Shown piece by piece: positions 5,967 through 39,049 of a stretch of DNA of 64,000 nt. A program made the translations under genes and the position numbers. This stretch comes from Patellaria atrata CBS 101060 (lineage: Eukaryota). The notes under the pieces were generated by a model. That model ran no database searches, was not told where the DNA came from, and saw only the letters and a program-made list of their open reading frames with translations. The number at the start of each line of letters is the position of its first letter. Position 1 is the stretch's first letter. The stretch lies in contig MU006110.1 of NCBI GenBank assembly GCA_010093705.1, forward strand, positions 142,377 through 206,376, written 5' to 3'.

Positions 5967-6884
5967 CTATCCAGTCCACACAGCGGGTCCGGGAATGATG
6001 TACTCGGTGCTGGTCATGGAAGAGGCGGAGTCGATGTTGACGGCGATACCCGGGTCAGAAGCCTTGTAGGCACCTGGGAAGCTGACGAGGTAACTGCCAG
6101 AGGGTTGTGCGGAGCCGGAACCGGTAACGGTGACTTGGGCGCATTCGGGGTAGACTTAAAGAGAAATTTTAGCACTATTTCCACATTTCGATTGTAGATT
6201 TCACGAAGTCTTAAGAGAAACAGAGGTTTTTGGGGAATAGGGAAATGGACAAAGGGGTAAAGGGACTTGGACATACATTGCGGGTTTCCGCCCTGGTGCA
6301 AAGCTAAAAGCTCGTGTCTGACGAGGTACTCGCCCGGTGCCAGAGACGCAGGAACCTTGAAGGTCCACTTGAGGGTATCGACGATCTGGTCGCCGGCCCA
6401 GATGCCCTTGTTGAGAGTTCCGGACTTGAGACCTGCGTGGTCGACCTTGAACCAGACGTTGCCGCTACCGTCCCAGCTGTTGCATGCACCGGGGCATTTG
6501 GCCATGTAGCTGTTGATTCCTCGTCAGTATCTTGACAGACTAGAAGGGTTAAGAAGAGGATATAACGTACATCATAACCGCTGCGGGCCTATGGGTCCAC
6601 TGCGTCCAAGTGGCCGTCATATCCGTACCAGCAGTGATCGTACCGGTAAGACCTGTTCCCTTGGCACCGTTGTTATTGCAGCGGATGTTCACACTGCTGA
6701 GGCCGGAGTTGTAGATGGGGTCGAATGAACCATATTGTCTCTGGATGCTGCTCTGGCCCGAAGCGCTGTTGTACGGCTGCCATCCCTTGTAGCTTTGGCC
6801 GTTCATGGTGTAGGTGCCGACGCCACCGTGGGCACTGACGAGCGACACGATGGACGTGATGGCTGCTGCGGCGGAGAACTTCAT
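5967..6884 (-). CDS. AA9 (GH61) lytic polysaccharide monooxygenase
   Basis: Signal peptide, then His1 (VSA-HGGV). WTHRP; YMAKCP...[14 protein letters not shown]...PQFYPECAQ across an intron; ends IPGPAVWTG*. Two introns at about 6510-6570 and 6156-6276. Confidence 0.93.
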
Positions 6885-8040
6885 GGTTGCTGACTTATCT
6901 GACTATCCTCTTACGAGACAAAAGATCTCACTGAGAGAGAGAAATTAAGACAAAAAAGTGAATGAATGGACCGACTCTTGTTGTGCTACCAAGCTTTGCG
7001 GGGAGGAGCTTATAAGAGATATAACCTACAGTCCCAAGTCTTCTGGAATCGGGCTTCTCGAGCCCCGAAATTCTGGGGTAATGCACGCCAAATGTGGATG
7101 ACATCAAATTACTGCATTGTTCCCGCTTCAGGAGGTAGACGCCGGCCGCCATACCCACCGCTAGGGTCCACTCCATCCAGTCCCAGCGCCGTTACATCCT
7201 AGAAGTGTGGAGCTGGCCAGCGGGCGTAACGGTCTGTCTAACCGTGGCAAGGGTGGATTATGAGAGCGTGCTAGGCGGAGGGAGGCTCCGTAATATAGAA
7301 AGTATCGATTGCATTTAGAGGGTAATGAAATGTGGAGGGAGGTGGTTGAGAAAACCTGGATTTGATGATATGTGATTGGGGAAGGGAAGGGTGAATGATG
7401 GGGCTAGATAGGGGTAGGTTAATAGGAACAGGCTATAGAAATAAGCTCAGGTGATCCGAAGATCTTTCTGCAACGACGCTTTCATCCTTCTCGGTGAATT
7501 TGGAGGGAAATGCATTCTCATATCTTGCATGATGGACTACATGATCTACTAGCAAAGAACCGGGAAGAAGAAGGTCTCCGAAGCAATCAAAGAATCGAGT
7601 CTTGCATGTTACTGTAAGGTAGAAGAGGCAGAAATCAAAGGACTTACATCCTCACCACCTCGATAACACGTTGTTTTAAGGTTGCATGCCGTTGGGCTTG
7701 CCTCACTCTGGGAAAGCGGACCGACAGGGTTGGAATTGATTGCTCAGATATTGCGGGGTATCAAACTCACGCCCAAAGCAAAAATTACTCGAGCAAGGCA
7801 CAAACCTTGGCACGTTGGAATGTCAGTCTGTCACCCAGATTGGCAGTCTTTGATATTGGTTAGCATTACTGATGTAGGACGTTCTGGATACAAGTTTCTG
7901 CCCCCTCAAGTCTCGTGCTGAAGACAAAGGTAACATCCCCCAACTCCTAACTATGTGTCTACGAAACCTGAAAATGAGCAAAGAAGACCCAGATCCTTTA
8001 GAGAGAATTCTTGAATTATGGTGTAAGAGAACTCTACCAT

Positions 8041-11000
8041 CTATTTCCAAGCATTGAGACCAGCCCAAGGATCTGCTGACGAGTTTGGTGGCTGTTGACT
8101 ACTCTGTCTCGGATTGTGTGCATAACCACCCGGCCCCGATGGAAAGTTACCAGTAATCGCCGAGAAATCTTGCTGTTGAGCAGGTGGGGGTCCAGGAGGA
8201 GGTGGTGGTGGATTCCAACCTGGAGGCATATATTGTGATTGTGTCTGGTGTTGGGCCTGATGTTGAGGCTGTTGCTGGGCTCCAGGAAAAGCTCCAAACT
8301 GACCTGGCGGAGGAGAGAAGAATTGCTGATGTGCAGGCGGAGACACTGGACCGTACGTATTAGGATTGTAAGGTCGAGACTGATCAGCATAAGACTCTCG
8401 CCTTGGTGGACCTGGCTGATACGGTACACTGGAAGAAGGCTGAGGATAGCCTGACGCTGGAGGCGATTGCATATACTGCGAGCTGGTCGCTGGGACCGGA
8501 GGGGGATAACGGGGAGTTATAGGAGGTGATGCAGCCGGGTTGTAGGAAGGTTGGTATGCTGGCGTCTGTTGAAGAGGCGCAGGCCGGTTCTGAACCTTCT
8601 TTGGGGGAGACTGCGGAGACTGAGTAGGGTTGACGGACATTCTCTCCATGAGTTCGTTCAATCGGTCCCTCTCCTTGTCTGCATTGCCGTTCGACTTGCT
8701 GGCTTCGATCTTGGCGAGCAACTGTCCTCCTTCCGACCTGCGATTGTTTACAAACGTCTCAACATTCTTTAGAAGACTTTGCACCGTATCGTTCATTTCA
8801 GAGTAAAAGCCTTGTGCTCTCATCAAACCCGCCTCCAGGTCATTGAATGCCTGGTAGACCTTCTTGTATTTGCTCATCACAGCGCTTCGTTGCCTGTTGA
8901 ATGCTTCGTACTTGCTTTGCTCAGATCGTACCCTCTTATCCTGCAAAAGATCGCTGTAAGTCCTTGTGAGCTCCTTCATCAAGGAAGCTTGCTTATGGTT
9001 TGCTTGGAGAAGTCGGTTTTGATGCGGTCTATACTTTTCCAGCTCTGCTTTGAAAAGCTGTTGCTCTTGATTGGAGATCGACTTCTTGTTTAGAATAAGA
9101 ACATTTGATATGTCGTCGTTGTGAACCTACGTGGAGTCAATATTGTACTATGGATTTCACTGAGAACTTTCTTACCTTCTCCTTAAGATCTTTCAGTACC
9201 TGTGCCCGCTCTCTCTTGATTAGGTTCAATTTCTTGAGCATTTCCTCCACATTTGCAATCTGTTCTGCAACACTAGGCCCTCCTTGGAAGTCGTCGTCCA
9301 ATAAGTTACCTTCCGCACCAGCCGACAAGGGGCTATTGACGCCTTTACCTTTTCCTCTCGATGCGCCGGCTTTAATCATTGCACGCTGGTAAAGGACATC
9401 CGCCTCGTCTGTCTCGCCGGCTGATCGCATCTCATCGAAATCGGATTCATACTGCCTGAAAGTACTGTAAAGCTGGGCATCGCTCGTACTCGCTTCTTCA
9501 ACGGCGGTACGGTAGTTCTTGATATCGCTCCTTAGTGTTGCAGTCAATCTCGAGCTGGGCTGCTGTGTCCAATCAACCCCGTATTTCGAGCGCATCTTCT
9601 CGCAAACACTCTCCTCCATATCCAACTGCTTCATACTCGAGTCGAGCATGCGGGTTATTTCCGCTTTGTCCGTGCTTAGTTGGTCGAAAGGGATACTGAA
9701 CGGAGCGTGTCCTGCCAACTCTTCGCACCACCTCCTAAATTCCTCGTCGACTATCATTTCTTGATCCATACCTCCCTTCAAGATATTAAGACTATCCGGT
9801 AGCTTGAGATAATCCAGACTCGCCGCCATTTCATCATTCGCAATCTCCACCCTCTCTGTTTCTGCACGGACAAGTTTGGCCTTTTCCTCGTCGTACAAGC
9901 TGGCAGATTCTGTCACGGCCATAGGGACGATCTTCTGGAAAATATCTGGGCCAATGATTCGCTGGATATCTTGTCCCTGGTACAGTTCACTAACAGGAAT
10001 TGCTTTCGCTGCTGGAAGCTTTGGTATTGCCGTTAGGGCCGCCTCTGCTGGAACTGGTTGGTGGTAAATGAAATCATTGTCTTTAATGCACTCTATAATC
10101 TTCTCCTGAATATTTGCTAGATGACGTTTTACGATGTCAGCCAGTGTGATACCTGTCTCTGCATTCATATTCGAGTTAGTAGGGACAGATCCTGGAAAAG
10201 CATTTGCTATCCGGCTCGCATCTCGTGCTTGCATTTCTGCAACTTGTAGTCGACATATTGCAATTCCATGGGAATTAGCGTCATTGTCTGCCAAGGCCTG
10301 GTAGTACTGAGCAAGAGATGACATGTAATTTGCCTTGATCTGAACCACATGTAACCAGACCTTTTCAAAGATGGCTTTGTTGACGTTCTCTTGTACACCC
10401 TCTGTAGCTTGCGTATATAGAAAGGCCGCTTGGCTGGCGAGTTTAGCAAGAAGGCCAACCTTTTTGCCGTCGGCAATTTGCTTTTCTAAGAATACTTCCT
10501 GGCCCTGGGCTAGCATGATCGCTATAAGTGTCTTTACAGTCTCTCGGCTTAAATCCGTTGACGGGGCATGGAGGAAGTTTTCGTTAATATAGGTGAACAT
10601 TCCCGCAGCTGCTTGGAATGAATGGTAAGCGGTCTTTAACCCTGTATCTTCATGCCGATTTTGCAGTGCTGCGTGACATGACAAAACCGCCGAGATATTA
10701 AATATTATGGACGCTTTCTCATAAGCTAGAGAGTATTGTGAAGTGGGTTTGTGGGTGAATGCGTCGAACCTGGTTTAATCGTCAGTAACCCAAATCTTGA
10801 TTGACTACATTAGCTGGAGGAGGGTAACTGACCAGGTAAAAGCTATCTTGATATGGTTCTCGTCGACGGGAAACCTCAAATCTAGGAGCTCTAGTTGACC
10901 ATAATATCTGTATAGTAGATCCCGTCCGGCAGCACTATCCTTTCCCGCACCTCTCATATCCTGCCGTAGCCTGTTTAGGGTCGCGCATTCTTCTGCATAT

Positions 11001-22979: not shown

Positions 22980-24850
22980 TCAAAATGCGTTCGTCCGACT
23001 ATAAGGAGATACTGGAGGGAAACGGCCGTATTGACTAGCAGGAGCTACAGACCACGAAGGGGACTTGGAACTGTATTTTGAATCCTGAAAATCTCCTGGG
23101 GACCGATCGGAGGGAGGACGTGGAAGCTCGCAGGTAACCGTACTTTTAACAAGAACCGTCTTCTGGTCATAATCTCTTCCATCTAGAGTCCCAACCTTTA
23201 TCAGTGTTGGGGAGATTATCAATGTAACAGGTGTACCCTCCTCGACAGATTGACCATCTTCTAATTCCATCACACTACTGGCAAAGTTCATGCCGAACCT
23301 CTTCCCTGCAGGGCTTGTATATGAATGTGTTAGGAGGGAAGCTTTCTGCTTCTTCATTTCCCCGTCCAGTTCGATTGCAATTCGAAGAATTTCTTTCAGT
23401 TCTTCAAGAACCTTGTATTCTGGACTTGACGTGAAGTGCTTCGTTGCTTCAAATATCTTCCACGCGACTTTGTTGACCTTTGGCTCGAATTTACTCTTAG
23501 GTGTTTTCTTTATGATGAGATCTGTAGTCAATGACCTCCATAGGTGGTAATCCCGATGCTCCGTGGGAGTTAAGGGACGTTCTTCTGTAAGACATCAAAG
23601 ACCATTCATCTCATCCCGTCTACCAAAGTTAACTTACTACTTCTGACATACTTCATCATATCACGCAGTTGTTCTTGCATATCCCCCGACCAGTACACCC
23701 CACCTTCATCAAACTCCGTCCCAAATACAAAAGAACGGAGCCTTTCCCAGACCAAAGATTGCACCAACATCGGTCTGAAATTGTTAGAACGCACGAAATT
23801 CTCAGGCGATTCTACGAGTCTCTTCCATGTTTGACCCTTGGAAGCCCACTGTCCTCTCAAGCGCGATGATTGGGGCTCACTGAAATGTTGAACTCCCCAG
23901 TTTCTGATCATGTAAATGAGCCCTTTCCACTCTGAGATGAAATGCTTGTCATCTAACTTGAAATGAGCCATCGCTTGCATCTTTTGCAAATCACTTGCCG
24001 CTTGCCTCCATTGCTTTTGCATCTTTTCTTTATTTTGTTTCATGACCTCCAAATCCTCATGTAATCTAGATATGTCGTGTTCTTGTTTGGCTAGTAAGTC
24101 GTTGTAATAGGATTCTAAACTACCAGATCGGCATCCGTTCCCAGAGTCTGGGTTGTTAATTTCCGATGACCCTTCGTAAGTATAGCCCTCCTCTCTCCCG
24201 TCCGAGGGATTTGACTTTGAAAGGTCCCCGAATGCCATATCCAATCTTTGTGGTATTGATACTGACAGAGAACTTTCAGGAGACATTGCGTTGAAATTTT
24301 GACTCATATCCGACTTCTCCGAGTTGACATCTGTTGGCAGGGCCTCAGGGCTGCTCAGTCCTGAAGTTGAGCGACTCATTTCCATTGAACTGCGATGAGG
24401 AGGTTCTGAACGTAGATTAAGCATTGATATCGGCGGTCCCTGCTTCATATGTCCCCCTAATTCTAGAGAGGATGATTCTTGAAGCTTTGGTCTGTCCAGA
24501 TCATCGGATGGTTCAATGTAGCCTTCTGGTCGCATTTTATCTTGGATGTTCGGGTCTAATGGAACTTTTGTAGGGAGTAAGTTCTCTTTCGGGTTATGTG
24601 GCAGAGAAGGCAATTCTCCTATCTTCATCTTCTTCGACTTGTCGTCTTCCTCATGCTTGTCTCCATTGTTCTCTATTTCAATTGGATTAGATGATGGACT
24701 TTCAGACACCGAAGAAGCCCGAGTTCAAATCAAGAACGTACCTGTGTTTTGAAAAGACTTTTTACGACGTAACTTACCGACGAAGCGGCCAATAGTCCGA
24801 GTCTCTACATCTATCGCGGGACTTTTTACACTATTTTGACGTTGAGCCAT
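22980..24850 (-). CDS. Hypothetical coiled-coil protein with GrpE-like/Mieap-like C-terminal beta region
   Basis: Three exons (introns at about 24675-24741 and 23585-23638). Disordered N-terminus, heptad region (LLAKQEHDISRLHEDLEVMKQNKEKMQKQWRQAASDLQK), helical core, and C-terminal GMNFASSVME...VTLIISPTLIKVG...KTVLVKSTVTC. Confidence 0.8.
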
Positions 24851-25109
24851 ATTGTAGATGGGATAGTTGTCGGAGAAGAGAGGGGAATAGCCTTGCTGAA
24901 GATGAGACACACACTCTTGTACGTAGGACATTACACGAAGATCCTGAAAGGCGAGGCTGCAGCCACATGCATGCATCTATGCATCTCGAATTATCTCAAG
25001 GTTTTTGAGTGCATTTAGCCAAGGTTCTCACCCTACATTTGGCAATCAATGGAATTATAGGATGGTCTGGTAGAACATTGACTAAGCTCTGGGCTGACAT
25101 TTACTCATG

Positions 25110-26149
25110 CTATATCGAAACCCCAAACAAGGGAAGTATGTTGAAGACCAAGCTGACACTCAATCCCAAGACTGCCGCAAACAATTGCAGTCCGTCTGTC
25201 TTTTTACTGCTTTTCCTGGCGTTGTCAATATTATCTTTCGTCTCCCTCCCAATCGCAGCTTTGAAACGATTCTGCTTTTGACTCTCTCGGGCCAGTTTAG
25301 ATTCAGCTTCACTTTTCTCTCTTTCACGCTTTCCTCTAACTACTACGTCTTGATTCCGCTCTGCCTCCGCGATGTACCGGTCTAGTGTAGCTATCTCATC
25401 TTCGGCTTCCATTATTCTTCCATAGATTGAGGGTGCTACTAGACGGCCAGCAGATGTATCTTCAAGTGTTTTACCGTAATCGTTGACTTCCCTCTGGATA
25501 CGAAGAACAATGTCCTTCTTCCCCGCAAGTCCTATAACAATGCCCTGGGCCATTGCAGAGCTACCATCGAAGTTGTATATTTGGCTTCCTCCCTTCTCCA
25601 TCATGCACCAAAACTCTTTCCGAAGCTCTTGATCCCGTTTTAACCCAATCGAAGGGTCTCTCAGTTGATCCCACATCGTCGTTACCAGTACGACATTTCC
25701 GAAAGCTTCTTCTCCGCATATCTTCTGAAACATTTGGAAATAACGTAGAGCACTTCCTTGCATTCTCATATCGGTTATGCGATGGAGATATATCAATCCT
25801 CTCAGAGGGATTCCCAGCTGATATTGTGCAACCAGGAACTGTGTTATTTCGTCGAGAATCTCCGCATCTGATCGCGTCGTATCATCAAATCCGGGCGTAT
25901 CGACAATTGCTATTGACATTTCATCCCCTATCTTCGCCTGAACTATGGCACAGTCCCTGGTTTCTGTTCCAAATAGTCAATCTAAATGATCTTAAGATGT
26001 TGAAGTCTTGAAAGATTACCTGAATATAGATCATCCCCCTCTACGACTGAATCCTGGACTAATCGATTAATGAAATAGCTCTTTCCAACACCCGTGACAC
26101 CCATCACCACTATCATCCCGCTCGGTTCATTACGTGTTTCGGAAACCAT
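25110..26149 (-). CDS. Tail-anchored TRAFAC P-loop GTPase (septin/GIMAP-AIG1-like) with coiled coil
   Basis: G1 VMGVTGVGKS in exon 26149-26020; intron at about 25965-26019; G3 IVDTPGFDDT; IYLHRITD; G4-like VTTMWD; coiled coil; hydrophobic C-terminal LFAAVLGLSVSLVFNILPLFGVSI. Confidence 0.88.
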
Positions 26150-27226
26150 GCTTTCATCAAGTCTGCTTCATCTTCATGAATTTTAATAATGAACTCTCTT
26201 TTGAATAATAAAATATACCTGCAAGGAGAGACAAGGCTCGGGGGCGGCTAGAACTCCTTCTGAAAACACACGCCAATATTGCAAAGTGGTTGGTGGTGGA
26301 ATCTCTGCATATGTGTGATGCCGTTTCCGGTGAAGAGATGTTTTAGTGGGTAGCTTATCCTCACTATTGGTCCTACAGATCCTTCAGCCTTACGTCTTAT
26401 CAGAACGACCATCCTATTGATCTCAACCGAGTACAGTATTGAAAATCCTACCCCGTACCTAATCCATGCGAGTCAGGTATAGTTCAGCTCCGAGCTTACA
26501 TGGTACAGGGAGCGTTCTAGGACACCTCCATGCTTGAATTCTTGGAACTATTGCTTCCCCTCATGAACAGAGTGGTTATGTTGAGCACTGCAGACTTGAT
26601 TAAACCGGTACAACGACAAGGCCCAGGCTAAGTCTTACACTGTTCATCAGTTGTCAGTAGTAGATTTACCATTTTGCCCGGGCATTTTCCACCAAGGGAT
26701 CCGCAAAATAATCAAACTATCAACGTGAGGATAGTCCTCGGATTCTCCGATAATACCTTTACACCCAACAGCTGTGGCAATGAAGAAGCAAGTATAACGC
26801 GCGCTACACAAGGCTGCGACTCTAGAACTCCTGCTGCCTGAGAGCCTTATTACCATTTGGTGGTCAATTTGCTGTTTTGGGACTTGCATGCGTGCGGAGT
26901 CTCTTTTTCTGGGAGCTACGAACTCTGGATAAGCCTATGTTACTGGAGACTTGTTCACCGGAATGCACTCCTTCAGCCGAAATCCCGCCTCGAGAGATTG
27001 GTGTGGGTTCACAAGCGTCAAGAAGAATTACCGTCTGGGTTCTATCCCGTCTTTAATCGAGAGATCGTAGTCCTGGCTATCCTGTCCATCCAGTAGGGCG
27101 GTTTCTGTGGATCCAAATGTCCTATGCTCAGTGTTAAGAGCCAACGGATCTCTCATTTCACTTTTCAGCTCTCATTCACACATTTCGGTATTTTTTACCA
27201 GTTCATTTCTGAATCACTCTCACACT

Positions 27227-29454
27227 ATGGATGACGATATGTTTGACGATACCTTCCTGCTGATTGGAATTGATTTTGGAACAACGTAAGTTAGGGAGTT
27301 CCCACAGCAAATCGTGAAACTGCTAATGACATAGATACTCTGGGGTTGCTTGGGCATGGTCAGGCCGACCTGAGGAGATCAATGTCATTACGAACTGGAA
27401 GACCGCCTTAAATTTTAATGCGGACAATGCCAAAGCACCAACAGAGATCTGCTATTCTGGAAGCGAGATATTCTGGGGCTACGATATCGCCCCAGAAGAT
27501 GAGCCCCTTCGATGGTTCAAGTTACTGTTGGTAGATGAAGCGGACTTACAACCTGAAGTCCGCAATGCGCCACAAATCTTAAGAGCTCGACAACTTCTAC
27601 AGAAGTTAGGCAAGAACGTCGTAGATGTGGTAGCGGACTACTTACGCCTGCTCTGGCAGCATGCTATCGAAAGCATAGAGAGGGAGAGGGGTAAGACCTC
27701 AGTTAACGGTCTTCCATTTAAGGTCGTCGTTACTCTACCAGCTATTTGGAAACCAAATTCTCAGAATAGAATGCACGAAGCGGCCCGGAAAGCGGGTATC
27801 TTGGATGACAGACTCTGTGGAGATACACAATTACAGTTTGTCCCTGAGCCGGAGGCTGCGGCACTAGCAACGTTGGTGGATTTTAGAGGAAGATCTGATA
27901 TCAAGGTCTTTATTGTCTTCCCATCTACGGAATCCGAGATTACTAACATGAAGTAGAAAGGAGATGTGTTTGTCGTCTGCGATGCCGGCGGAGGTACGGT
28001 TGTAAGCATCCCATCAGAGTCCCTCCTTCTCCTTTTGTTGATAACTTACGAAAATCACAGGATATAATCTCGTACAAGATTGAAAGCACAAAACCAATGA
28101 AGGTCAAAGAATGTGTCGAGGGAAAAGGTACAGTCCTATATTTCTTTGTAACTAGCTGTAACGCGGCCTGAATTCCTCTCCTAGGGGCCATGTGCGGCGC
28201 AATCTTTATTGATCAGGAATTCGAGAACATGGTTAAATTGACCATGGGTAAGATGTGGGCTAAGTTGAGCAGAGGAAGTATCAAGACGATGATGAACAAC
28301 GAATGGGAAAACGGTATCAAACGGAAATATGACGATTCCGATAGGAAATGGAACGTTGTCCTTCCGGCAGAAGCATTTCCTAGGTTTGCTCGTCGGCCTC
28401 TGGATGATAATAAACATAGTATTGAGCAAGGAAAGATGCAACTTTCGCGGTATATCCCCATCTAGCTCTTTTACATAAAACTTGATAGAGAGACTAACAC
28501 ACTACAGTGGCCACATTCGATCAATATTCGAAGGAGTCATCCAACAAATCAGAGGGTTAGTCAACGAGCAAATCGCTGCAGTGAAGAGGAAAGAGGGTGT
28601 CCTTCCGAAGGTAATACTCGAACTAAATGAGCATAGTTCAGCCCAATAACCAAGTAAACAGGGCATAATGCTCGTGGGAGGATTGGGTGCATGCAACTAC
28701 CTTTACCAAACGCTCAAGACAGAGCATGAACCCTATAAGATCAACGTACTACAACCACGTGGCGATCGTCCGTAAGTGATTCTCATAGTCCTACTGGAAG
28801 GAAAGTATTCATGAAAATAGATGGACAGCAATCTGCCGTGGGGCTGCGATCAAAGCCATGGACACTTCAAACGTCAACACAGACCTCAAAGTTCTCGTCA
28901 GCTCGCGTGTCTCGCGTTTCAACTATGGAGTCGAATACTATACCACCCCGTTTATCGACGGCATCCACGACGAGCGCGACCGGAAGTTCAACGCGATCGA
29001 AGGCTGCGATGTCAACGCGCACCAGATGGAGTGGTATCTCAAGCGGGTAAGCTCCTAAACCTCATGTCAATATAATATATCAGACGGGTAAGCACGCTTG
29101 CTGAAATGGTTTTCTCTTCAGGGCGAAGATATCTCGGACCTTGCCCCTGTAATAATGTCGTGGGTGCGCAAGACGCGCTGGTTCCAATCCCGCTACTCGA
29201 CCAGCATCCTACACTGCGAGGACGAGCAGCCACCCAGACGGCGCACCGAAACCGTAAAATCTCTGTGTGACATTGCGTGGAAGTGCCACGTCCCGTATGA
29301 GGATCTGGATGTGAATATTAACTCCCAGGGAGAGGAGTATAGACAGTTGAATTATGATCTGAAGATGACGGTTACGGGAGCGAGTCTAGATTTTACGGTG
29401 AGCATGGCAGGACGACAGCTCGCACAGAGGAATGTGCAGGTGGATTTTAAGTGA
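27227..29454 (+). CDS. Atypical Hsp70 (HSPA12-like actin-fold ATPase)
   Basis: Multi-exon gene: IGIDFGTT|YSGVA, VVTLPAIW, EPEAAAL, VVCDAGGGTV|DIISY, CGAIFID, LVGGLG, SRFNYGV. No canonical lid or EEVD end. Confidence 0.9.
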
Positions 29455-30455: not shown

Positions 30456-30950
30456 ATGTATACCTCAACCATACTCTCATCAGTCCTCCTTCCGCTCCTG
30501 GCTTTAGCAACACCTATCCGTCCCCGCGCCGGCGGACCCGCTATAGTCCCCATCCCATCAACGTGCTCCGTCATCTCCCCCCTTACGGACGCCTCCGTCT
30601 ATCCTCCCCCCTCGACAACAACCTCCCCTTCCACCACAACGACACCCTCCCCACATTACTCCCCGGCGGCCTCGCTCTTGGCAAACCAGATCTACGCATA
30701 CTACCTCGCCCCGTCCGACGCCCCGGGAAACTTCACGCAGTGTCTGGAGCAGTGCTACGGCTTTGGGGAACGTGGAACGTGCAAGAGCGCGTATATGGCG
30801 ACGGGGGTGCCGAGGCCGCCGATGTATGGACTCCCGGGCGGAGATGAGTCGATCGCTTGTCTCATGTACGGTGTGGAGGTGAAGGAAACGGATTTCGTGC
30901 TTGTTGAAGAGGGGTTCGGTGATCCGAGGGTCGGGGTCATTGAGTGCTGA
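30456..30950 (+). CDS. Small secreted Cys-containing protein
   Basis: Signal peptide MYTSTILSSVLLPLLALA; S/T/P linker; CLEQCYG..TCKS..ACLMY; ends in Cys. Single GC-rich exon. Confidence 0.75.
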   Translation: MYTSTILSSVLLPLLALATPIRPRAGGPAIVPIPSTCSVISPLTDASVYPPPSTTTSPSTTTTPSPHYSPAASLLANQIYAYYLAPSDAPGNFTQCLEQCYGFGERGTCKSAYMATGVPRPPMYGLPGGDESIACLMYGVEVKETDFVLVEEGFGDPRVGVIEC

Positions 30951-35749: not shown

Positions 35750-38700
35750 CTAGCATTGTCTAAGATACAAACCGATAGGTTCAGGATTGTAGTCTTGGAA
35801 ATACTCAAGCTCGATACCTTCCGACTCGAGCTCGAATCCAATCCTCATGCCGTGTCTGCAAGGATATGTGTCCAAGACATACTCATGGCCTGGTTTGATA
35901 TCGAAGGAGCCGAAGTCCCTCTTCTTAGCGGGCGCGTTGGCGTAGGTGGTATGCTCATCAGCCGGTGCCCATAGGACTGAGGCTCTGATTGAGCCGTGGC
36001 CGTTATACTTGTAGTCACTAGATATACGTTAGGAAGTTATGTTGTATCCCGTGCTTGTAAATTTCTTACCTAGTCTCCATATGACCCTTCTTCGGGAAGA
36101 GGAAAATCAACGAGCAAGTCTTGCCCTTGTATGACTCTGGAATGTCGAAATTGTAGATAGTCGACTTGGTAGCAGAGCAGACACCATTGTATTGGGTTCC
36201 ACACGCCTTGTGCGGTTTGCTCGCATCGATGGGGACGATGAGATGAGGGAATTGGAATGGACCTTCCAAGTCAGCTGGGCAGTCCTTGGGCGCAGGAGGA
36301 TGGGGAGGAAGCAGAGGAAGATTGTGCTTATCCTGGCAGTCCTCGTGATCTGGTGTCTGTTCACACAAGGGTGGAGGCATAGGCTTTGGCTTTACATTAT
36401 GGCACTCGTCATGGTCTGGAAGCTCGTCACAGTTGACTTTTGGCTTACAGTCCTCAACATCTGGGTGCACCTCGCAATCGGTTTCGCAGTCATCCCCTGC
36501 ACACCTCTTTTGGACCTTTCCGACCTTGCCGAACAGGTGATGACCCTCTGGGGGACACCCACACTTGTCCTTTTGCCCTACCCAAAACATGCAGCACACC
36601 TTGACTATCTCTTCTTCTGCTGGAGGAGAGGGACAATCGGGGTGGTGAGGGTGATGATGGCAGTCTAGCTTTGGCGGATGGCATCCATGGTGGTGAGGAT
36701 GGTGTTCGCAGTCAAGCTCTGGCGATGGTTCGGGGCAATCCTCGAGATAAGGGTGATGATGGCAATCTGGGGGGTGAGGTTCACAATGATCCCCAAAACA
36801 TCGCTTTTGGACCTTTCCAACCTTCCCGAACAGATCATGTCCCTCAGGTGGACAGCTACAGTGGTCTTTTTGGCCTACCCAGAAAGCACAACAGACCTTG
36901 ATCACCTCAACGTCTTCATATTCAGGCTCGGAATGACAATCGTGGTGATGAGGATGTTTCTTGCAGTCAGGCTTTGGGGGTGGACATCCATAGTGATATG
37001 GATGCTTCTCGCAGTCGACTGGCTTTGGGGGCGGTGGAGGAGGGCACAGATGGTGATGCGGATGCTCATCACAATTCGGCTTAGGACAACCCTCAAGGTA
37101 TGGATGGTGACGGCAATCCGGAGGATGTGGTTCACAGTGATCCCCCAAACATCTCTTTTGCACCATTCCAACCTTCCCGAATAGATCATGCCCCTTGGGC
37201 GGGCAGCTGCAGTGATCCTTTTGGCCTACCCAGAAGACACAGCACACCTTGACCACCTCAACCTCTTCATATTCCGGTTCCGAATGACACTCAGGGTGAT
37301 GCGGATGGTGGTGGCAATCTGGCATTGGTGGTGGGCACCCATAGTGGTGTGGATATTTCTCGCAATCGACTGGCTTTGGTGGAGGAGGAAGTGGGCATCC
37401 GTGAAGGAAAGGATGTTGATGGCAATCAGGCGGATGAGGTTCGCAGTGGTCTCCTAAGCACCTCTTTTGCACCTGACCCACTTTCCCAAATAAATGGTGA
37501 CCCTTAGAAGGGCATGAACAGTGGTCCTTTTGTCCTTCCCAAGACACACAGCAAATCTTGATCACCTCAACCTCCTCTGGTGGTGATGGTGGATGAGGGC
37601 ACATGTGGTGGTGTGGGTGATTTTCGCAGTCAGGTTCTGGGGGGTGATGATGATAATGATGGCAGTCCTCATGATCTGGCTCTTCCTCGCAGTGAACCGG
37701 CCTTTTTGGTTTACAGTCCTCAAGGTACGGATGGTGGTGACAATCAGGAGGATGAGGCTCGCAATGGTCGCCCAGGCACCTTTTCATAACCTTACCAACC
37801 TTTCCAAATAGGTGATGGCCCTCCGGAGGGCAGCCACAGTGGTCTTTCTGTCCTACCCAGAAAACACAGCACACCTTAACGATCTCTGTCTCTGGAGGAC
37901 AGTGAGGATGGTGCGGATACTTCTCGCAGTCAACCTTCGGAATTGGGGTATAATGATGATGATGATGATGACACTCCTCGTCATCTTCTTCGCACAATGC
38001 CTCTGGCTCTGGCTTATGGTGTCTACATTCCTCGTGATCCGGCTCATCGTCGCAGTGATCTGGCCTCCTCGGCTTGCAGTCCTCCAAATAAGGATGGTGA
38101 TGACAATCAGGCGGATGATGCTCGCAATGATCCCCAAGACACCTTTTCATAACCTTCCCAACCTTTCCAAAGAGATTGTGGCCTTCTGGTGGACAGCTGC
38201 AGTGGTCCTTCTGTCCAACCCAGAACACACAACACACCTTCACAACCTCCTCTTCATGATGACAGTGAGGATGGTGTGGGTGCTCGTGGCAGTTGATTGG
38301 TCTGCACTTCTCGTGATGATGATCAACCTCGCAATCGGGCTCTGGTTCCGGATGATGATGATGCGAATGGCATTCCTCGTCGTGTTCTTTGCAGTGCTCT
38401 GGCTCCGGATGATGATGATGATGGTGTAAATGGCACTCCTCGTCGTCCTCTTCGCAGTGCTCTGGTTCCGGGTGATGGTGGTGCGAGTAGCACTCCTCAT
38501 CGTCCTCTTCACAACGCTGTTTGTGCGCTTCCCTGCGTTTAAGCTCAGATGCTTCCACTGCCGCATACTTCAGCCTGACCTCGACGCATTTCAGCTGTCC
38601 TTTCAGAGGTTCTGTATAGACGTTCCACTCGCCGAAGTCGTTGACCGGGCACGCCCAAAAGCAGTCCTTGCCGTGGTACGTTACGAGATCTCCAGATTCG

Positions 38701-39049
38701 CAGCTGAAGCCAGGGGTTCCTATAAGTCGACCGTCAGTCAAAGAAATAGAAATTCAGCGGCCTGACACTCACCTTTTGCACCAGCATCACATTGTATCTG
38801 GGACGTCTCAGGAGTAACGATGCATCCCCTGCCGTGAGAATCCGTAACGACGCCGTCCTCAACGCAAAATGTTGATACTCCATGACCTCCGCCAATGCGG
38901 ACTTGACCATCATCGAGCTGTCCGAGAGCAGACCATGCTCCGTCTACGGCATAGACGTTGAAGCAGTGTTTTTCTCCGTAGCCACCTCTCTTGATGGCCG
39001 CAGCAGAAGCACCAAGGGCGAAAGCGAAGGGCGTGAACGCTTTCACCAT
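35750..39049 (-). CDS. Secreted/cell-wall protein with PIR-like N-terminal domain, long His/Cys/Pro-rich repeat region and But2 C-terminal domain
   Basis: Signal peptide; LGQLDDGQVRIG...GRGCIVTPETSQIQCD; central repeats; FQFPHLIVPID...STIYNFDIP..TCSLIFLFP and YFQDYNPEPIGLY. Introns at about 38722-38772 and 36019-36070. Confidence 0.88.
36300..38520 (-). repeat. Intragenic tandem repeats: six KVCCxFWVGQKDHCxCPPxGHxLFGKVGxVxKRC units plus many CxxHPxHxxC motifs
   Basis: Visible directly in ORF 36066..38741. Units are about 300-360 bp apart. Confidence 0.9.

Follow-up and report, generated by a model that had tools for sequence, protein, structure and literature searches.

A conserved three-gene module of filamentous ascomycetes encodes a divergent Hsp70, an AIG1/GIMAP-like GTPase and a protein whose predicted fold weakly resembles GrpE

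Bacterial GTPase-centric conflict systems of the GAP1-N2 type, as presented in the part of Kaur, Burroughs, Iyer and Aravind (2020; PMC7159879) considered here, combine a GTPase with HSP70 and GrpE, and in some of them the HSP70 family protein is devoid of a peptide-binding domain. The initial annotation of the locus described below had appealed to a bacterial precedent of this type, and it does exist in the form of these GTPase-centred systems. In animals, the Hsp70 and AIG1 families were found to be expanded jointly in a nematode and in oysters (PMC6872716, in the sections drawn on here), while the function of HSPA12 is stated as unknown in a 2026 review (PMC13580251, in the passages used here).

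We analyzed a 64,000-nucleotide stretch of DNA of Patellaria atrata CBS 101060, referred to as the window. Three intact, intron-bearing genes with standard GT-AG splicing, A, B and C, occupy positions 22980-29454, with the following features:

22980..24850, minus strand: gene A, 570 aa; splice model with exons 24850-24778, 24672-23638 and 23584-22980
23022..23576, minus strand: conserved C-terminal domain of A, comprising the last helices and a small beta domain; the part with the predicted GrpE-like fold
24851..25109, no strand assigned: spacer from the stop codon of B to the start of A, 259 bp; A and B are in tandem on the same strand
25110..26149, minus strand: gene B, 327 aa; exons 26149-26020 and 25963-25110
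25128..25184, minus strand: putative tail-anchor helix in the B protein, spanning residues 304-322 of 327
26150..27226, no strand assigned: divergent B/C intergenic region, 1,077 bp between start codons; B and C are head-to-head
27227..29454, plus strand: gene C, 592 aa, nine exons
Gene C, exons 1-5: 27227-27285, 27335-27905, 27957-28001, 28061-28127, 28185-28449
Gene C, exons 6-9: 28508-28610, 28662-28771, 28821-29046, 29122-29454

These coordinates and the open spliced frames agree with the initial annotation, which had described three apparently intact genes, with about 260 bp separating tandem B and A and about 1.1 kb between head-to-head B and C. Gene A forms a single open frame across introns of 105 nt (GTAAGT...CTAAT...TAG) and 53 nt; the spacer of 259 bp applies to the model with a short first exon and would be 481 bp if A started at the alternative ATG at 24628. 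The spliced translation of gene C is identical at every letter to KAF2835264.1 (P0121; Patellaria atrata CBS 101060, 592 aa). The region between B and C is presumed to act as their shared promoter. Trimers of heat-shock elements were not found, and STRE were not in excess. The left neighbour of the trio is an AAA ATPase (PF00004 with AAA_lid_3), and a choline-transporter-like gene (PF04515) is located at about 33.1-35.2 kb; this domain content is consistent with the MSP1 and PNS1 flanks named previously. A small ORF (30456-30950) lies between gene C and the choline-transporter-like gene. Profile scans of the 64 kb window detected no further copies of the A, B or C families.

Of the checks suggested with the proposal that the three genes form a unit, a gene-neighbourhood survey and a co-phylogeny were carried out. 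For the survey, 75 metagenome loci anchored on B were scanned with the A, B and C profiles. Eight loci (L001, L003, L004, L006, L011, L015, L019 and L022) had C(-), B(+) and A(+) in precisely the layout of the window. B with A was seen in L010, which has just 1,057 bp of upstream sequence, and C with B in L014, with just 841 bp of downstream sequence, and in L016, from which A is absent. The head-to-head B/C spacers measured 443-1,309 bp (window and 10 loci), and A in every case followed B immediately downstream, in the same orientation. A tree of 108 B genes placed every linked gene in a single clade of 21 (SH-like support 0.998), composed of nine C-B-A loci (window included), two C-B, one B-A and nine contigs too short to judge. 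All 12 clade B genes with visible context, the window included, adjoin C and/or A in the same order and orientation, whereas none of the 87 B genes outside the clade had C or A within 4.5 kb. The latter comprise 53 GTPase pairs, 7 solo genes and 27 short contigs, the related GTPases forming head-to-head arrays.

Flanking ORFs were common only to L003 and L016 among 12 loci compared; the trio has therefore been kept in at least 10 different contexts. Identity of B between loci drops to 31-40% with order and orientation unchanged. For A, B and C, the same groups emerged from identity matrices as from maximum-likelihood trees (the window with L001; L003, L004 and L016; and the rest), and bootstrap values for the main splits were 95-100. 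Mantel correlations (r), inflated by shared ancestry, were 0.96 for B-C, 0.87 for B-A and 0.78 for C-A. The arrangement was also traced in named genomes, where adjacency was read from consecutive accessions, locus tags or a shared contig and not from coordinates. In Cenococcum geophilum, A (OCK99572), B (OCK99573) and C (OCK99574) are consecutive, as they are in two more annotation sets. Partial sets are represented by Glonium stellatum (C OCL12175, B OCL12176), Mytilinidion resinicola (C KAF2814349, A KAF2814351), Microthyrium microscopicum (C KAF2675108, A KAF2675110) and Neoarthrinium moseri (B JX265_001107, A JX265_001108). C and A share a single 9,850-bp contig in Polyplosphaeria fusca, and B and A are merged in one 879-aa gene model in Meristemomyces frigidus.

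Eukaryotic gene order is often kept between close relatives without functional meaning, and A, B and C might be mere neighbours, brought together by chance or local synteny and functionally uncoupled. We regard this as highly improbable and strongly disfavour it: the linkage is complete within the clade and absent outside it, the flanks differ in all but one locus pair, order and orientation persist at the low B identities given above, and the gene trees are congruent. The three-gene arrangement far exceeds chance expectation. Conserved non-metabolic gene clusters are, to our knowledge, rare in fungi, and the maintenance of order and orientation at such divergence therefore points strongly to shared function. 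The window carries one copy of an old module of three genes, conserved among filamentous ascomycetes, for which composition, linkage and co-divergence are shown, and the earlier view of the genes as a unit is upheld by conserved order, differing flanks, congruent trees and consecutive accessions. Their joint occurrence in many fungi of distant relationship makes it probable that A, B and C act as one machine.

Gene B encodes an AIG1/GIMAP-like G domain (G1 GVTGVGKS, G3 DTPGFDD; TTMWD in the G4 region), together with a stretch of coiled coil and an anchor at its C-terminus; many GIMAPs likewise combine coiled coil with a C-terminal membrane anchor. The best sequence matches of the B family profile to solved structures were GIMAP4 (2.6e-11), GIMAP7 (3.6e-10) and Toc33. 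With Pfam AIG1 (PF04548), the window B exon alone scored 22.2 bits, below the cut-off of 27, and the cut-off was passed by the relatives P0008 (31.5 bits) and P0019 (40.5 bits). Judged from these relatives, the profile matches and the G1 and G3 motifs, the G domain of B is assigned to the AIG1 type. The Kyte-Doolittle 19-residue maximum of 2.21 falls on residues 304-322, and a hydrophobic C-terminus is retained in most of 30 aligned family members. With a single hydrophobic helix at its extreme C-terminus, B is classified by sequence as tail-anchored and is predicted to insert into a membrane. The GIMAP profile matches and the hydrophobic C-terminal anchor both favour the original assignment of B to membrane GTPases of the GIMAP/AIG1 class.

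The product of gene C combines a divergent Hsp70 nucleotide-binding domain with a C-terminal part of about 170 aa that is not canonical. The protein scored 23.4 bits with PF00012 (cut-off 20.6), the Hsp70 ATPase motifs are kept (DFGTT, DAGGGT and VGG columns invariant or nearly so), and the C family profile matched the nucleotide-binding domains of BiP, DnaK and mortalin with E values down to 1.7e-14. By these signatures, C is a member of the Hsp70 superfamily (PF00012). Matches of the profile to solved Hsp70 structures were confined to positions 13-416 (listed ends 391-423 of 589, mostly about 416), and the last approximately 170 positions had no match in solved structures. Classification of C as a canonical DnaK/Hsc70-type protein was rejected, as the substrate-binding beta domain and helical lid were not matched after the nucleotide-binding domain. 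Source annotations of several closely related fungal proteins carry the name 'Heat shock 70 kDa protein 12A/12B'. The atypical Hsp70 announced in the initial annotation is thus a divergent Hsp70 with the nucleotide-binding domain only. When prokaryotic genomes were scanned with the C family, only seven loci came up, all of them weak, and the trio had no bacterial equivalent there.

Gene A encodes a disordered, S/P/E/D-rich N-terminal part of about 200 aa (a 0.675 fraction of residues 1-200 is S, P, E, D, N, K, G, Q or T), followed by a coiled coil and by a helical bundle with a beta domain. No Pfam family was found in the window exons of A, which gave only coiled-coil matches, each under the cut-off. 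The conserved C-terminal domain scored 222.7 bits with the family profile, and 172 relatives of it were detected at E<=1e-3 among 1.84 billion representatives. The full model of one relative, P0246 (pLDDT 81), consists of a disordered head, a 66-residue helix, a helical bundle and a beta domain; the order of parts in GrpE is the same. A domain-only model of another relative, P0277 (pLDDT 86, pTM 0.87), was compared with 48,161 chains. The first rank was taken by GrpEL1 (9bls_B; Z 5.5, rmsd 4.9, 108 aligned), and the top three also included E. coli GrpE (1dkg_B; Z 4.7, rmsd 4.9, 104 aligned) and Geobacillus GrpE (4ani_A; Z 4.7, rmsd 3.3, 100 aligned); Z>=5 was reached by one chain only. In a second search, against the 994 top chains from Foldseek, Z>=5 was reached by only three, all of them GrpE (9a81_A, 9blt_B and 1dkg_A). 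Both fold searches used the single model of P0277 and not the A protein of the window, and Z values of 4.7-5.5 are low, as according to the tool a Z under 8 can reflect a common arrangement.

Foldseek itself gave no match to the A models at E<=0.001. Pfam GrpE (PF01025) was not detected in the window exons nor, at E<=1, in any of 112 family members, and GrpE was absent among the 94 solved-structure matches of the A family profile at E<=10; membership of A in GrpE by sequence was rejected on these grounds. Moreover, A contains additional helices, about 170 residues, that GrpE does not have. The models weakly suggest that the predicted fold of A resembles GrpE most. Of the 'GrpE-like' label given to A in the initial annotation, a weak fold resemblance is left, with no sequence or Pfam signal. 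The evolutionary rate of A is also some 2.5-3 times that of B and C (in the window, branch lengths of 1.54 vs. 0.55 and 0.62), with an identity of 51% where B has 81% and C 77%. Its absence from L016 makes it dispensable in at least one locus, and its presence or absence distinguishes two otherwise collinear loci.

The module could be real and A still not be a GrpE-type partner, associated instead chiefly with the GTPase, as an adaptor of coiled-coil type, a substrate or an effector, with the GrpE resemblance reduced to a coincidence, a hairpin of helices lying against a small beta sheet. Such a role fits the low Z values, the lack of a sequence signal to GrpE, the constant position of A behind B together with the merged gene model in Meristemomyces, and a rate of evolution unusual for a housekeeping co-chaperone. 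However, the top three chains of 48,161 are GrpE chains from three different sequence clusters, the sole Z>=5 rows of the second search are GrpE again for a protein encoded beside an Hsp70 gene, the structural alignment spans 100-108 residues of the GrpE C-terminal core, and the parts follow the GrpE order. We consider this alternative rather unlikely.

We put at about one in two the probability that the module is an Hsp70 machine that is tethered to a membrane, coupled to a GTPase and equipped with a GrpE-like partner of its own. In this machine, B would be held by its C-terminal anchor in an organelle or ER membrane and would assemble in a GTP-dependent manner, as in GIMAP GTPases. A would dimerise via its long helix and be brought to B, probably via the coiled-coil stretches of both, and its GrpE-like helix-plus-beta domain would engage the nucleotide-binding domain of C, A being a dedicated nucleotide-exchange or regulatory partner. 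The outcome would be a GTPase-controlled, Hsp70-type ATPase cycle at the membrane. What remains of the initial interpretation is the unit, the divergent Hsp70 and the GIMAP-like GTPase, with the GrpE-like component retained weakly.

Compatible with the Hsp70 machine is the possibility that the module serves in cell-autonomous defence, allorecognition or conflict, by analogy with the bacterial GTPase-centred systems and with the part played by GIMAP/AIG1 proteins in plant and animal immunity. The closeness of B to GIMAP4 and GIMAP7, the fast evolution and variable presence of A, the different genomic contexts of the trio and the head-to-head arrays of related GTPases would all suit such a role, as would the description, as conflict systems, of bacterial neighbourhoods that unite GAP1-N2 GTPases, HSP70 and GrpE (in the part of PMC7159879 considered) and the joint Hsp70/AIG1 expansion in a nematode and oysters. 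Yet toxin, nuclease, pore-forming, HET or NLR-type domains were not seen in A, B or C, and the sections of PMC6872716 drawn on here interpret the animal co-expansions as heat or stress adaptation, not immunity. A defence function is, in our estimation, unlikely. We likewise give little credence to a broader, speculative view, in which the GTPase-gated, membrane-anchored fungal Hsp70 machine with its GrpE-derived exchange factor would be a cell-autonomous surveillance or defence device that mirrors, in eukaryotes, the logic of bacterial GTPase-HSP70-GrpE conflict systems, and the same Hsp70-AIG1 partnership would underlie the repeated joint expansion in stress-exposed animals. If true, the HSPA12-type Hsp70 branch would gain its first cofactors and a first functional context. 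Through the module itself, a divergent Hsp70 branch acquires a protein of putative GrpE fold and an AIG1/GIMAP-like GTPase as candidate partners, and the joint expansion reported in PMC6872716 a possible explanation by physical linkage.

No description of the trio was found in the literature. Animal HSPA12A/B, to which C is putatively tied by the source names of relatives, resemble it in having a divergent nucleotide-binding domain and a non-canonical C-terminal part. The GIMAP/AIG1 (IAN) GTPases of animals and plants resemble B by the GIMAP4, GIMAP7 and Toc33 profile matches; B differs from GIMAPs in the sub-threshold Pfam score of its window exon, in its G4 sequence and in its linkage to Hsp70 and gene A, and no report of GIMAP linkage to Hsp70 and A-type genes was found in the literature. 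DnaK-GrpE and mitochondrial Hsp70-Mge1/GrpEL1 resemble the trio, in which the gene for an Hsp70-type ATPase is accompanied by A, with GrpE and GrpEL1 as the best fold matches of its model and with the GrpE order of parts. In contrast to DnaK-GrpE, A has no GrpE sequence similarity and carries the extra helices, C is without the canonical substrate-binding domain and lid, the fungal module has no J-domain gene, and a GTPase is its obligate neighbour. The GAP1-N2-type systems, in the part of PMC7159879 considered, encode a TRAFAC-class GTPase, HSP70 and a GrpE-type partner together, a combination mirrored by the trio with A as its putative GrpE-type partner. Their FNIII, DnaJ and TPR components and effector domain were not seen in the trio, whose GTPase is AIG1/GIMAP-like and whose genes are eukaryotic, intron-containing and separate transcription units. 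Membership of the trio in the GAP1-N2 type was rejected, B being AIG1/GIMAP-like and the locus fungal and spliced. The likeness is one of logic, not membership, and the fungal module would extend the bacterial GTPase, HSP70 and GrpE design to eukaryotes.

Under standard fungal GT-AG introns, a splice reading of the region gave three intact genes, encoding a coiled-coil protein with a conserved C-terminal region (A), an AIG1/GIMAP-like GTPase (B) and a divergent Hsp70 (C). These and their neighbours are arranged as follows.

Left of the trio: AAA ATPase
24850-22980, minus strand: gene A, three exons, 570 aa
26149-25110, minus strand: gene B, two exons, 327 aa
27227-29454, plus strand: gene C, nine exons, 592 aa
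Between gene C and the choline-transporter-like gene: small ORF
About 33-35 kb, right of the trio: choline-transporter-like gene

The spliced translation of gene C is identical, letter for letter, to the database protein P0121 (GenBank KAF2835264.1, Patellaria atrata CBS 101060, 592 aa; record name 'actin-like ATPase domain-containing protein'), and together with the splice models this confirms the intact three-gene set that the initial annotation had placed here. The starts of B and C lie head-to-head, 1,077 bp apart, and A lies downstream of B on the same strand, separated from it by a 259-bp spacer if a short first A exon is assumed. The intron after this exon is a textbook one (105 nt; GTAAGT, CTAAT branch site, TAG); an alternative A start at ATG 24628 would give a B-A gap of 481 bp. 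A search for transcript evidence turned up no RNA run; two runs containing the stretch are probably DNA contigs, possibly those behind the assembly, and have no splice junctions. A family profile scan found no further copies of the A, B or C families elsewhere in the 64 kb window. The small ORF right of gene C, at 30456-30950 (plus strand), encodes 164 aa and has a local GC of 0.60 vs. about 0.45 around it; its product begins in signal-peptide-like fashion, includes an S/T/P-rich segment and matched no Pfam family. An 895-aa open frame at 36069-38753 (minus strand) has a But2 C-terminal domain, shows a weak PIR1-like match and is unrelated to the trio.

The linkage survey was anchored on the central gene B. 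Metagenome contigs yielded 75 loci, with flanks of up to 10 kb to the left and right, and their six-frame translations were scanned with the A, B and C profiles. Results showed C(-)/B(+)/A(+), the order and orientation of the window, in eight loci. Partial sets were seen in locus L010 (B and A, with just 1,057 bp of upstream sequence), L014 (C and B, with just 841 bp downstream) and L016, which carries C and B with A absent across 10 kb downstream and is collinear with L003 save for a clean stretch of ~2.5 kb at the position of A. All linked genes fall into one clade of 21 in a 108-gene B tree (SH-like support 0.998), in which 9 genes belong to complete trios (the window among them), 2 to C-B sets and 1 to a B-A set, the other 9 being on contigs that are too short to judge. 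Outside this trio clade neither C nor A occurred within 4.5 kb of any of the 87 B genes (53 paired GTPases, 7 solo, 27 short). Flanking ORFs are unrelated between trio loci, the sole exception being the pair L003/L016. The neighbourhood survey, in which C/A linkage is found in the trio clade with order and orientation kept, supports the proposal that the three genes behave as a unit.

For the pair differing in gene A (L016:10821-11302 vs. L003:7668-10620), nucleotide identity drops from 92.7% in the left flank to only 79.1% in the Hsp70 gene and 83.5% in the GTPase gene. Related AIG1-like GTPase genes from outside the trio clade form head-to-head pairs, often in arrays of three or four (L020, L021, L026, L027, L029, L045, L047, L048, L051, L052, L057-L059, L062, L065, L067, L068, L070, L071, L075); these account for 53 of the 108 B genes, none of which has an Hsp70 or A-type neighbour. 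This suggests that a sister family contains obligate GTPase pairs.

Independent support for the trio came from the accession, locus-tag and contig data of named genomes, in which adjacency was inferred from accession or locus-tag numbering and shared contigs rather than from coordinates. Three annotation sets of Cenococcum geophilum number A, B and C consecutively (OCK99572/73/74; XP_067509068/69/70; XTI90976/75/74). Consecutive numbering also links C and B on a single 48,064-bp contig of Glonium stellatum and the locus tags of B and A in Neoarthrinium moseri, and a 9,850-bp contig of Polyplosphaeria fusca carries both C and A; the accession numbers of C and A are two apart, on the same contig, in Mytilinidion resinicola and in Microthyrium microscopicum. 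The Meristemomyces frigidus protein P0384 is a single 879-aa model with AIG1 at residues 19-154 and the A domain at 746-879, running through the usual tail-anchor segment. It may be a true fusion or an annotation read-through, and B-A adjacency follows either way. Both Dothideomycetes and a Sordariomycete are represented among these fungi.

No prokaryotic counterpart of the trio was found in a C-family scan of 185,579 species genomes, which gave 7 weak loci, six of them ordinary short Hsp70-like matches. The seventh, L076 (6511-9463), lies on a contig titled as a deltaproteobacterial MAG and has A-like pieces at 6511-7031 (minus strand) and Hsp70-like pieces at 7868-9463 (plus strand) that cover profile positions 209-594 only. 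These head-to-head pieces lack an intervening GTPase and are split into short ORFs; the locus looks like a decayed or intron-bearing eukaryotic one, possibly on a mis-binned contig.

A co-phylogeny check of the proposed unit showed that the maximum-likelihood trees of the three proteins are concordant at all well-supported nodes. Identical locus groups were recovered for A, B and C, with between-group pairwise identity down to 31-40% (B) and 25-37% (C). Mantel correlations were 0.96, 0.87 and 0.78; as they are inflated by shared ancestry, we take these values as description only. Gene A is the fastest evolving: in the same comparison its identity is 51%, against 81% for B and 77% for C, and its window branch length is 1.54 vs. 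0.55 and 0.62 for B and C.

In gene B the motifs GVTGVGKS (G1) and DTPGFDD (G3) are accompanied by a stretch of coiled coil and, at residues 304-322 of 327, by a hydrophobic helix. The Pfam AIG1 score of the window exon is below cut-off (22.2 vs. 27 bits), and relatives score above it (31.5 and 40.5 bits). The best matches of the family profile among sequences of solved structures were GIMAP4, GIMAP7 and Toc33, then septins.

Gene C narrowly passes Pfam HSP70 (23.4 bits vs. a cut-off of 20.6). A solved-structure relative was not found by phmmer with P0121 alone, but the family profile (70 relatives) matched the nucleotide-binding domains of BiP, DnaK and mortalin with E down to 1.7e-14. These matches are confined to profile positions 13-416, the last ~170 positions having no match among solved structures. 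Across the family, the Hsp70 phosphate and adenosine motifs show little or no variation. Some relatives carry the name HSPA12A/B in their source records. PF27033 is listed among the database's precomputed domains of P0121 and several relatives, and is absent from the output of the local Pfam copy.

Gene A begins with ~200 disordered polar residues, followed by a coiled coil and the conserved C-terminal region. A word-based homologue search with exon 2 (340 aa from ATG 24628; lengths 187-595 aa) gave nothing at E<=0.001. Exhaustive HMMER searching with the last exon gave 172 relatives at E<=1e-3, the best with only 33-36% identity; the A domain forms the C-terminal end of 400-880-aa proteins, and all organism-named ones are fungal. 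Atlas returned unnamed Ascomycota clusters (0.92-0.95) and weak leads to GIL1_IRKI_C (0.80) and MIEAP (0.78). Pfam on A and 112 family members gave coiled-coil families only, mostly below cut-off, and no GrpE, MIEAP or GIL1_IRKI_C. At the sequence level, then, the 'GrpE-like' label of the initial annotation did not hold: neither Pfam on the window exons and the 112 members nor the family profile against solved structures linked A to GrpE.

In the full-length model of the A relative P0246 (pLDDT 81), a disordered head leads into a single 66-residue helix, followed by a helical bundle and then a small beta domain. A wide structural search with it returned coiled coils only, and since these swamped the search, the globular part was modelled alone, using P0277, a 299-aa relative that begins at the domain boundary (pLDDT 86, pTM 0.87). 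Against 48,161 representative chains this model ranked human GrpEL1 first (9bls_B; Z 5.5, rmsd 4.9, 108 residues), E. coli GrpE second (1dkg_B; Z 4.7, rmsd 4.9, 104 residues) and Geobacillus GrpE third (4ani_A; Z 4.7, rmsd 3.3, 100 residues), with the caveat that at Z below 8 a match may come from an arrangement that is common among folds. Only one of the 48,161 chains reached Z 5. After re-alignment of Foldseek's 1,000 best chains (n=994), Z>=5 was seen only for the GrpE chains 9a81_A, 9blt_B and 1dkg_A. The alignments run from GrpE residue 76-104, depending on the entry, to its C-terminal end, and in the model from the first helix to the beta domain, with ~170 residues of inserted helices unaligned. 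Foldseek with the P0246 and P0277 models gave no match to solved structures at E<=0.001. The GrpE-like part of the proposal therefore stands on the predicted fold, where GrpE is top-ranked at Z of only 4.7-5.5, a weak but specific signal; with Z under 8 and no Foldseek match, the fold is a candidate GrpE-like one. As the top fold match coincides with an adjacent Hsp70 gene, the odds that A is an Hsp70 partner are raised, and we put them at roughly one in two.

The analysis shows the composition, conserved linkage and co-divergence of the trio; its most likely mode of action is an inference. B would be tail-anchored in a membrane and might assemble with GTP in the GIMAP manner. A may dimerise via its long helix, its GrpE-like part touching the nucleotide-binding domain of C, and could meet B through the coiled coils of both. 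Together, the three would run an Hsp70-type cycle at the membrane under control of the GTPase. The module includes no J-domain gene. The 11 B-C spacers contain no heat-shock-element trimers and no STRE excess over shuffles, and the missing trimers give no sign of classical heat-shock control. A possible role in defence or allorecognition, as proposed initially, fits several observations: B has affinity to GIMAPs, A evolves fast and is occasionally lost, the trio sits in varied genomic contexts, and bacteria offer a GTPase-HSP70-GrpE precedent (PMC7159879). None of the three proteins, however, has an effector domain.

Full-text literature searching, with few subscription journals covered, found no published account of a fungal Hsp70-AIG1-GrpE-like cluster. 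The function of HSPA12 is unknown according to a 2026 review (PMC13580251), and a nematode genome paper (PMC6872716) describes Hsp70 and AIG1 families as jointly expanded in a nematode and in oysters. Among known pairs, DnaK-GrpE comes closest. The known system nearest in logic is bacterial, a GTPase-centred conflict system that includes HSP70 and GrpE; the trio is not a member of it, since its GTPase comes from another family and its genes are eukaryotic.
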